Source of the DNA: a virus | Taxonomy: Duplodnaviria; Heunggongvirae; Uroviricota; Caudoviricetes | Virus record (IMG/VR): IMGVR_UViG_2537562191_000051 | Length of the DNA stretch: 18,090 nt | Reading direction: 5' to 3' (one strand) | Part shown: positions 4,616-5,440 of the stretch, piece by piece | How the letters are laid out: every line of letters starts with the position of its first letter | Position numbering within the stretch: position 1 is the first letter of the stretch | The notes under the pieces: generated by a model | What the model saw: only the letters and a program-made list of their open reading frames with translations | What the model was told of the DNA's origin: nothing | The model's database searches: none | Position numbers and translations under genes: made by a program

Positions 4616-5440
4616 TTAAATTCTGGTCCTTACAATATCAACCTGAAGATTCTTATCTTGTGCTGATTGATAAATGACAAACCTTTTACTACCTGCATTG
4701 AAAGAAGTAGACAAAACCAGACAATTATCATAACGAGCAAGAACATAATACCAACCATCATTATAATTAATCATTTCATATTCTTTCTTAAACTGTGGTT
4801 TGTAATATCCTGTCAGAAATGAAAAAAGCCAGAAATATGCCAGAAATATGCCAGAAATATGCCAGAAATATGCCAGAAATATGCCAGAAATATGCCAGAA
4901 ATATGCCACAAAAGCAATCATCACAATCTCAAAAAAATGTTTTTTTATAAATGGCTTATCATAGAAGCATGATACCGATAAAAATCGCCCATAAGATCTT
5001 ATCGAAATTGTAACCGCCAGCGCAATCGCTGCTGACAGTAGCAAAAGAGGTACCTGAATCTTCTGTCTCAATATAGAAAACTCAATAATTGCCGGCACAA
5101 ACAATAATTCCACAGCAAAATAAAGGCGAAATACATTTAGCTCTTGCATAGAATGTTTTCTTTTCACTGCGAAAAAGAATACAACACCAATACCCCAACC
5201 GATAAGAAATATAGCAATGACGATAACTGCAAAAAATAAACTTCTGGCAACATCATCAACACCTGCACCTACAATCCACCATGGGAAGCCGTAGTAAAAA
5301 GAAGTACCCCATCCATAGAAATAAGCACTCCCCCATCCAAGGCATCCCATGTAGGCAATAAAAAGTGAAGAACTCCTGAGCAACGCACCATCCTTCATAA
5401 CCACCCCAATACAAGATGATAACATTGGCTTACAACTCAT
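4616..5440 (-). CDS. Hypothetical polytopic membrane protein (moron between pR' and the lysis cassette)
   Basis: 274-aa ORF in visibly AT-rich DNA, where long open frames are unlikely by chance. Several hydrophobic helices (rich in F/W/Y/G/I) and a ~55-aa polar C-terminal tail. No recognisable family and no clear Shine-Dalgarno sequence. Confidence 0.5.
   Translation of the reverse strand: MSCKPMLSSCIGVVMKDGALLRSSSLFIAYMGCLGWGSAYFYGWGTSFYYGFPWWIVGAGVDDVARSLFFAVIVIAIFLIGWGIGVVFFFAVKRKHSMQELNVFRLYFAVELLFVPAIIEFSILRQKIQVPLLLLSAAIALAVTISIRSYGRFLSVSCFYDKPFIKKHFFEIVMIAFVAYFWHISGIFLAYFWHISGIFLAYFWLFSFLTGYYKPQFKKEYEMINYNDGWYYVLARYDNCLVLSTSFNAGSKRFVIYQSAQDKNLQVDIVRTRI
4828..4904. repeat. Perfect tandem repeat, 11-bp unit GCCAGAAATAT x 7, inside the membrane-protein ORF
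   Basis: Counted directly in the sequence, with partial units on both flanks. On the coding strand it is translated as the repeating ..FLAYFWHISGI.. segment. Confidence 0.95.

Follow-up and report, generated by a model that had tools for sequence, protein, structure and literature searches.

Phages 434 and 2B8 carry the closest described relatives of a gene that lies at positions 4616 to 5440, on the minus strand, of IMG/VR record IMGVR_UViG_2537562191_000051, the 18,090-nucleotide stretch of viral DNA analysed here and called the window below. The gene is an open reading frame (ORF) for a membrane protein of the TfpB/STM1630 family, and the window, read on the minus strand, covers the region for late regulation and lysis in a lambdoid prophage of O111-type enterohaemorrhagic Escherichia coli (EHEC). 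In phage 434 the counterpart is CPT_434_68, a 'putative membrane protein' (OL657226, 42170-42913) with 91.5% protein identity, and in phage 2B8 it is gp58, with 89.6%. As in the window, the gene stands after the antiterminator gene Q in both phages and is followed by a gene for a TciB/DUF3927 protein and by an element resembling a small RNA (sRNA), with 97-98% DNA identity over the cassette. Unlike the window, 434 and 2B8 have one unit of an 11-bp sequence and no insertion of 22 aa in the protein, and in phage 434 Q is of Q82 type, the upstream terminator is intact and a SASA esterase gene stands before the holin gene.

A more distant relative is STM1630 of Salmonella Typhimurium, a protein of 238 aa with the same motifs and about 42% identity over the full length. 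STM1630 is also AT-rich, horizontally acquired cargo and adjoins a virulence (sseJ-like) gene, but it is chromosomal, lies outside the slot between Q and the holin gene S, and has neither a DUF3927 partner nor a repeat. The locus further resembles the morons stx (phages 933W and H-19B), bor and lom (lambda), as it is an AT-rich insert between pR' and the lysis genes, with promoter-like and predicted terminator elements, behind an interchangeable Q; unlike stx cargo, the gene product is no toxin, and the gene is present in no sequenced Shiga toxin (Stx) phage. The repeat can be compared to the slipped-strand genes of Neisseria and Haemophilus, and to variable number tandem repeats (VNTRs) of the type used in multiple-locus VNTR analysis (MLVA) of EHEC, where a non-triplet coding repeat changes frame between close strains. 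Unlike in those phase-variable loci the tract is short, one to seven units of 11 bp, with four alleles, and therefore looks like slow drift.

It is fairly probable, in our judgement, that the ORF represents the O111-lineage version of a conserved lambdoid moron for a single-component TfpB/STM1630 membrane protein, and that this allele is probably impaired. The family is already catalogued, though uncharacterised, and the exact seven-copy sequence is public. What is new is the recognition of the ORF as a VNTR allele with restored frame, the nearest relatives having the gene as a pseudogene, and of what appears to be a PasD-like sRNA in the cassette.

The 11-bp repeat and its alleles

The initial annotation had taken the ORF of 274 aa for a normal and intact gene and had missed an 11-bp repeat at which the nearest relatives are frameshifted pseudogenes. 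The ORF is instead an atypical allele, in frame only through six extra repeat units. The two features concerned are:

4616..5398, minus strand: coding sequence of a predicted TfpB/STM1630-family inner-membrane protein, 260 aa counted from M15; 96 homologues, phrog_1521
4828..4912, minus strand: 11-bp tandem repeat within the coding sequence, coding-strand unit GCATATTTCTG; 7.7 copies with 98% matches according to Tandem Repeats Finder

Seven units, at 4830-4906, are perfect. As the unit of 11 bp is not a multiple of three, the copy number sets the reading frame, and four alleles were found:

1 copy: O157:H7, O55:H7 and most other E. coli; intact protein of 238 aa
2 copies: O111 genomes E2863, 11128 and about 20 more among the matches listed; stop after 176 aa, 'frameshifted' in RefSeq
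6 copies: O111:H8 strain 7-54 11A; stop after 199 aa, 'frameshifted' in RefSeq
7 copies: the window; in frame, 260 aa

The complete-genome matches were ranked by coverage times identity, and since every row below the lone six-copy genome has two copies, there is apparently no complete genome with 3, 4, 5 or 7 copies among the best-ranked matches. The 70 IMG/VR contigs with the gene gave a similar picture, with one copy in 66, two copies in three, a 1-bp insertion in the remaining one, and 4-9 copies in none, and a scan of JGI metagenomes for alleles of at least three copies found nothing. Among the IMG/VR copies that are not cut by a contig end, 56 of 66 are intact with exactly 238 aa, and about 15% are disrupted. 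Exact seven-copy products of 260 aa and 269 aa are already in NCBI from 11 contigs, for example EIH79625.1 (E. coli 4.0522), which argues that the seven-copy allele is heritable in a sub-lineage and not an error of assembly. Outside the repeat, the window protein is 100% identical to the first homologue over the aligned positions, and it matches the intact alleles.

The simplest history suggested by these alleles would be a duplication of the unit in an O111 ancestor, from one copy to two, which inactivated the gene. The duplicated tract would then have become able to slip, and would have expanded to six and seven copies, of which seven happens to be in frame.

The same prophage has a second VNTR, a hexamer AAATAG at 8298-8362 with perfect copies at 8304-8357. 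It has nine copies in the window, six in E2863 and eight in 7-54 11A, and the tract falls within a doubtful ORF of 85 aa (LFLFLF...), which is located upstream of two AT-rich ORFs.

The 11-bp repeat encodes AYFWHISGIFL twice over, within the last of the transmembrane (TM) helices, TM5. The result is a 22-residue insertion in the middle of this helix, a site where none of the other aligned sequences has one (0/19), and TM5 reaches 45 hydrophobic residues as compared to 23 in the one-copy protein. We therefore find it quite likely that the seven-copy product is impaired, because a helix of 45 residues would have to fold as a hairpin, which would leave the C-terminal domain in the wrong compartment, or else mismatch the bilayer. 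AlphaFold2 (AF2) draws the expanded segment as a single helix of 55 residues. As a helix of this kind most likely impairs the product, the ORF is best read as a re-opened pseudogene and not as a working gene.

The opposite view is that the ORF, of 274 or 260 aa, is an intact and working moron which tolerates 22 extra residues in a poorly conserved part, and that the protein has a role in the membrane of the lysogen, for example in superinfection exclusion or abortive infection. The open frame speaks for this, as does the sequence outside the repeat, which is essentially that of intact alleles; the allele persists in at least 11 assemblies, the position and the moron-like boundaries agree, and the neighbouring DUF3927 gene has the PHROGs label 'TciB-like, colicin resistance / cell division'. 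However, few parts of the protein are as well conserved as TM5 and the motif just after it (YFWxFS..GxYKPQ), and no other homologue examined has an insertion at the repeat site. In the immediate relatives the frame is broken at this very repeat, and selection on the gene in O111 thus appears to have been relaxed. The family is also found far from any phage, and no matches to known defence systems were obtained with PADLOC. Taken together we consider a working moron of this kind unlikely.

It is also conceivable that the repeat is a true phase-variation switch in O111, operated by slipped-strand mispairing between on and off states or between isoforms with a long helix. The unit is not a multiple of three, and copy numbers of 1, 2, 6 and 7, which change the frame, occur among near-identical strains; the hexamer of the same prophage varies as well, and members of the family in Avibacterium and Gallibacterium have many truncated forms. 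Still, there are only four alleles, and the two-copy allele is nearly fixed in the complete O111 genomes listed, which makes a true switch quite improbable. Alleles of three, four and five copies are missing from the best-ranked complete genomes and from the IMG/VR contigs, and the JGI scan gave none of at least three. Outside O111 the unit is single and unable to slip, and the other disruptions are ordinary mutations elsewhere in the gene. Of the properties of a contingency locus, a non-triplet coding repeat with frame-changing polymorphism is present and a broad spread of alleles is absent; the pattern is one of slow VNTR drift rather than rapid switching.

The protein and its family

That the ORF is real follows from its length, which is improbable by chance (at the local base composition the whole window should contain about 3e-4 open runs as long as its 274 codons), and from full-length homologues in several genera, which reach down to 42% identity. 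The open frame begins with an ATG at 5440, which gives the 274 aa; some annotators use an ATG at 5425, which gives 269 aa. The likely start, as judged from the relatives, is M15, an ATG at 5398 that is preceded by the Shine-Dalgarno sequence GGGGTGG. This start is conserved in the family, relatives at 42-68% identity all begin there, and so does the newest RefSeq annotation of a 99% identical copy (717 bp, 238 aa).

The GC content of the ORF is 36.1%, and 31% at third codon positions, as compared to 50.6% in Q, 45% in the phosphatase gene, 47.7% in the holin gene and 51.2% in the lysozyme gene. The initial annotation was thus right that the ORF is richer in AT than its flanks (36.1% versus 45-51% GC).

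The protein had been left without a family, but it can be assigned to PF27470 (TfpB), to the STM1630 family and to phrog_1521. All 96 database homologues carry a precomputed match to Pfam PF27470, with E values down to 1.8e-150, and the protein itself matches phrog_1521 with E 1.7e-150; PHROGs has separate families for N- and C-terminal fragments. The latest RefSeq annotations name the family 'STM1630 family protein'. The name TfpB we take to come from an ORF in the type-4 pilin inversion region of Moraxella; there was no Moraxella member among the homologues retrieved, and a text search for TfpB and Moraxella yielded nothing on the protein. Scans of the window protein against Pfam and NCBIfam gave no family match, and the local copy of Pfam appears to be without PF27470. 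Among PDB sequences a profile search gave a chance match alone, with E 1.3. The initial annotation had proposed profile and structure searches; the family was found, by way of the homologues and PHROGs, but Pfam and NCBIfam, PDB and AF2 were uninformative on function.

The family is small, its profile recovering 74 cluster representatives among 1.84 billion, and the named members are nearly all from animal-associated Proteobacteria. Among the enterobacteria they come from Escherichia, Shigella, Citrobacter rodentium, Salmonella, Klebsiella, Cronobacter and Yersinia, and the others are from Pasteurellaceae (Avibacterium, Gallibacterium, Pasteurella, Actinobacillus, Mannheimia, Haemophilus ducreyi) and Neisseria. 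The clusters from Avibacterium (P0109) and Gallibacterium (P0110) contain many truncated forms of 44-199 aa beside the full length of 240-261 aa, which suggests that the family is often inactivated in other lineages too.

Between genera, members of the family keep 42-60% identity and share invariant motifs at both ends. The N-terminal motif is SS..AY.G.LGWGSAYFYGWG.S.YYGFPWW..G.DD.ARSL and the C-terminal one YKPQ.KKEY....WYYVLAR...L.LS, and all invariant columns of both are present in the window protein. The canonical length is about 237-238 aa and the last TM helix is uninterrupted; the window protein departs from both.

A layout of about five hydrophobic helices and a polar C-terminal tail had been claimed for the ORF at 4616-5440, and it is borne out by the hydropathy and the AF2 secondary structure, from which the five helices and a beta-rich C-terminal domain were called. 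A short N-terminus is followed by a weakly hydrophobic first helix and a loop with the nearly invariant sequence GWGSAYFYGWGxSFYYGFPWW..G.DD.ARSL, rich in aromatic residues and glycine. Then come four clearly hydrophobic helices and a polar domain of about 60 residues and five beta strands, with YKPQ.KKEY...WYYVLAR. The numbers of lysine plus arginine residues per loop are 2, 0, 3, 1(2) and 4, which is compatible with the N-terminus inside and the C-terminus outside, and the beta-rich domain is accordingly predicted to be periplasmic. Two AF2 runs, on alignments of 50-51 sequences, gave predicted local distance difference test (pLDDT) scores of 60.5 and 61.9 and a predicted template modelling (pTM) score of 0.4.

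The moron cassette and its surroundings

The gene is part of a cassette with these features, given with the nearest landmarks on either side:

5678..6301, minus strand: antiterminator gene Q of lambda type, upstream of the cassette; PF03589, E 1.2e-57
5607..5635, minus strand: apparent lambda-type late promoter pR'; -35 TTGACT at 5635-5630, spacer of 17 nt, -10 GAAACT at 5612-5607 (TAAATT in lambda)
4048..5559, minus strand: shared moron cassette, with a terminator remnant, a promoter-like site, the TfpB-family gene, the DUF3927 gene and the sRNA-like element with its terminator
5536..5558, minus strand: decayed copy of the terminator between Q and the gene in phage 434; AACCCGCTGCCGAGTGGGTTTTTTTT in 434, AACCTGCCGCCGAGTAGTTTTT in the window
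5416..5445, minus strand: candidate sigma-70-like promoter, TTGTTA, 18 nt, TG-TATCAT; a consensus match only
4372..4530, minus strand: gene for a small DUF3927/TciB-like membrane protein of 52 aa; PF13064, E 3.4e-14, phrog_1470
4156..4361, minus strand: STnc100-like sRNA element of 206 nt; RF02076 over the full model length, 37.7 bits (gathering threshold 47), E about 1e-6
4185-4167, minus strand: strong intrinsic terminator that ends the sRNA element; -17 kcal/mol, z -2.4
3816-3788, minus strand: terminator-like hairpin before the holin gene; z -3.8
3535..3750, minus strand: phage-21-type class II holin gene, the first gene of the lysis cassette downstream; PF04971, RefSeq coding sequence

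The homology of the cassette starts at 5559 and, in phage 434, ends at 4048. The cassette is 97-99% identical to phage 434 and to an O157:H7 prophage, which both have a different, Q82-like Q. The idea of a separately acquired moron in the slot between Q, pR' and S is upheld by this, as the same block stands behind a lambda-type and a Q82-type Q; as in lambdoid morons, it is an insert of deviating GC content between phage modules that is common to otherwise different phages. Its boundaries also look moron-like, judged from the terminator remnant and promoter-like site upstream and the strong terminator downstream. A survey of the slot in related prophages, also proposed at the outset, was made on the 70 IMG/VR contigs. 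In all of them (70/70), where the flanks are present, the order is Q, the TfpB gene, DUF3927 and the sRNA-like element, and then holin and lysozyme; a SASA esterase gene sometimes lies between the sRNA-like element and the holin gene, and Q is of lambda type or Q82 type.

The claim that the gene lies downstream of a pR'-like promoter also held. The minus strand of 5560-5700 aligns to the end of Q and pR' of lambda (NC_001416) with 86% identity overall, nearly base for base to the transcript start, and the similarity ends a few bases into the transcript. The promoter thus appears to be of lambda type, and its spacer carries the Q-binding element. A search of the window for a tR' terminator in the interval from pR' to the gene gave none. 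The remnant of the 434 terminator has mutations in both arms of the stem and a shorter T-tract; no terminator-like hairpin is predicted at 5536-5558, where the decayed copy no longer folds. The altered upstream terminator and the changed -10 of pR' could shift transcription of the cassette in the absence of Q. The sigma-70-like candidate at 5445-5416 overlies the first 14 codons of the 274-aa ORF, just before the Shine-Dalgarno sequence.

From this arrangement it can be proposed that the lysogen would transcribe the ancestral gene, be it from a promoter of the cassette itself or through transcripts that run on from pR', which is suggested by the decay of the upstream terminator here, and that such transcripts would stop at the terminator at 4185-4167. 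Under Q the cassette would be transcribed late, together with the lysis genes.

The gene had also been placed upstream of the holin gene. It does lie upstream, though not directly, since the DUF3927 gene, the sRNA-like element and two terminator-like hairpins intervene. DUF3927 is the constant downstream partner in the lambdoid cassette, as it is present in 67 of the 70 IMG/VR contigs and the other three show nothing 3' of the gene; it is annotated in the O111 genomes and in phages 434 and 2B8. The TciB label given to it by PHROGs turns up in papers on P1-like phage-plasmids, and a text search for TciB and DUF3927 gave nothing relevant.

The sRNA PasD of prophages in enteropathogenic E. coli (EPEC) is structurally homologous to STnc100 and linked to Q (PF03589), and in phage 2B8 pasD immediately precedes the gene for the esterase (10.64898/2026.05.13.724894). 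Positions 4140-4375 of the window share about 99% identity with phage 434 and with the 2B8 interval to which that preprint assigns pasD, and the element at 4156-4361 is for this reason probably a PasD-type sRNA gene. The small ORFs annotated or predicted around this element are probably not genes. The 64-aa ORF at 4121-4315 (minus strand) matches a small 'membrane protein' of phage 434 only in two frames and overlaps the sRNA-like element and its terminator; the 132-aa RefSeq ORF at 3893-4291 (plus strand) overlaps the same conserved element and terminator; and the 62-aa ORF annotated in phage 434 at the interval is probably spurious as well. A weak Esr41-like match in Rfam is seen at 3890-3979 on the plus strand (32 bits as compared to a gathering threshold of 102, E 0.0016), and Esr41 matches are frequent near PasD (10.64898/2026.05.13.724894).

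That the coding region is a decaying passenger, and that the cassette matters for its RNA output, a PasD/STnc100-like sRNA and the pR' leader, seems very improbable: the sRNA-like element and terminator are about 99% conserved among the window, 434 and 2B8, Pas sRNAs are abundant and Hfq-bound in EPEC (10.64898/2026.05.13.724894), and about 15% of the viral-contig copies of the gene are disrupted, but the protein keeps 42-60% identity and its invariant motifs across genera, the gene occurs without the sRNA or DUF3927 in many contexts, and of the 66 copies in viral contigs 56 are intact, with exactly 238 aa.

The top DNA matches of the window are O111:H8/H- chromosomes, with 99-100% identity. 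Along the minus strand come HNH endonuclease, NinG, Ser/Thr phosphatase, Q, the TfpB-family ORF and DUF3927, followed by phage-21-type holin, lysozyme, Rz, Rha, an IS1203/IS629 insertion and an NleG effector gene. The insertion sequence (IS) lies at 677-1890 (plus strand), between the Rha and NleG genes, and has orfA and orfB with a programmed frameshift. The NleG-family gene, for an effector of the type III secretion system, lies at 1-534 (minus strand), and together with the IS it is typical EHEC prophage cargo 3' of the lysis cassette. Two AT-rich ORFs at 8597-9583 and 9622-10449 (both plus strand; 328 and 275 aa, 33-35% GC) adjoin the HNH endonuclease and NinG genes upstream of Q. RefSeq names them hypothetical and they have no match in Pfam or NCBIfam; they may be further cargo, such as secreted effectors, in this NleG-carrying EHEC prophage. 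No tRNA genes were found in the window, in contrast to Stx phages.

Distribution and possible function of the family

The allele group of the window is present in 691 of 5,426 complete E. coli genomes (about 13%), often twice per genome. Among 50,697 phage records the gene is carried by three, phage 434 and two records of 2B8, and by no sequenced Stx phage. The slot had been described as the one used by Stx phages for stx, and the gene appears to be an alternative tenant of that slot, as 434 and 2B8 carry it and no Stx phage does.

Outside the lambdoid phages the family is found in quite different contexts. In enterotoxigenic E. coli (ETEC) a member stands beside eltAB and the STb gene on IS-rich plasmids. 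On four such plasmid contigs (L011-L014) a 54%-identical member at 6001-6714 lies about 870 bp from eltAB, divergently oriented, amid IS and near STb, which hints that the heat-labile toxin (LT) locus and the family gene come from the same ancestral mobile region. In Shigella the gene is on 106 plasmid records, including the virulence plasmid pWR100, and in Salmonella a member (P0075) stands beside an sseJ-like gene, a synteny from which we infer that it is STM1630. In H. ducreyi (between rpoH and mqo), Avibacterium and Neisseria the gene is a lone insertion among housekeeping genes. As the contexts differ to this extent, the TfpB-family protein appears to work without a fixed partner, and DUF3927 and the sRNA would be specific to the lambdoid cassette.

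For STM1630, published data are limited to regulation and screens. It is listed among genes co-regulated with Salmonella pathogenicity island 2 (SPI-2) (PMC2639726), and its deletion was hypermotile in a screen (PMC4219756). The STM1630 promoter is inactivated in the invasive ST313 lineage.

We tentatively prefer, at somewhat less than even chances, a function as an envelope factor of benefit to the lysogen inside the animal host, as part of horizontally acquired virulence regulons. The preference comes from the repeated association with virulence cargo, seen on elements of four unrelated kinds, from the co-regulation with SPI-2 and from the restriction to animal-associated hosts. The context weakly supports such a virulence-associated envelope role. 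Exclusion of phages or colicins is ranked below it and is doubtful as the function of the family, and lysis timing or other roles make up the remainder. The role in superinfection exclusion or abortive infection that had been suggested for the ORF found no support, as a PADLOC scan gave no match for the window protein and, for ten distant relatives, only marginal matches to one of them (E 0.014-0.019). Scans of the same ten relatives with Pfam and NCBIfam gave no usable matches.

Several points weigh against our reading of the ORF as an impaired allele of such a gene. The structure models are poor (pLDDT 60-62, pTM 0.4), and the topology rests on hydropathy and the positive-inside rule only, with a weakly hydrophobic TM1; the predicted damage by the insertion rests on the same basis, because it is derived from that topology. 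The seven-copy allele is found in at least 11 assemblies and has no further damage outside the repeat, so it is possible that it is a tolerated or even selected in-frame variant. The -10 of pR' is weaker in the window than in lambda, promoters and terminators were called by consensus matching, and sites resembling promoters are fewer than in shuffled sequences. As regards the envelope role, deletion of STM1630 leaves replication in macrophages unchanged (PMC6785131), and the phenotypes of the screen are possibly polar effects of the resistance cassette, a caution given in follow-up work (PMC4534456). The linkage to virulence genes could also be hitch-hiking of AT-rich mobile DNA.

A bolder reading would make the family an unrecognised class of single-gene envelope factors for host colonisation, with the repeat as an on/off and isoform switch in O111 and the PasD-like sRNA co-transcribed. 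We regard this combination as improbable; if true, the family would ride with toxin and effector cargo on EHEC prophages, ETEC LT plasmids, pWR100 and near Salmonella sseJ.

For annotation, the re-opened pseudogene we propose here is a caution, as an open frame in one strain may be the frame-restored pseudogene of its nearest relatives. For the epidemiology of O111, the prophage offers a linked pair of VNTRs, one with the 11-bp unit and one with the hexamer. The family shares the late-promoter slot of stx, and members are found in about 13% of complete E. coli genomes and on virulence plasmids of Shigella and ETEC; its natural alleles of 1, 2, 6 and 7 units form a ready genetic series for finding its function.

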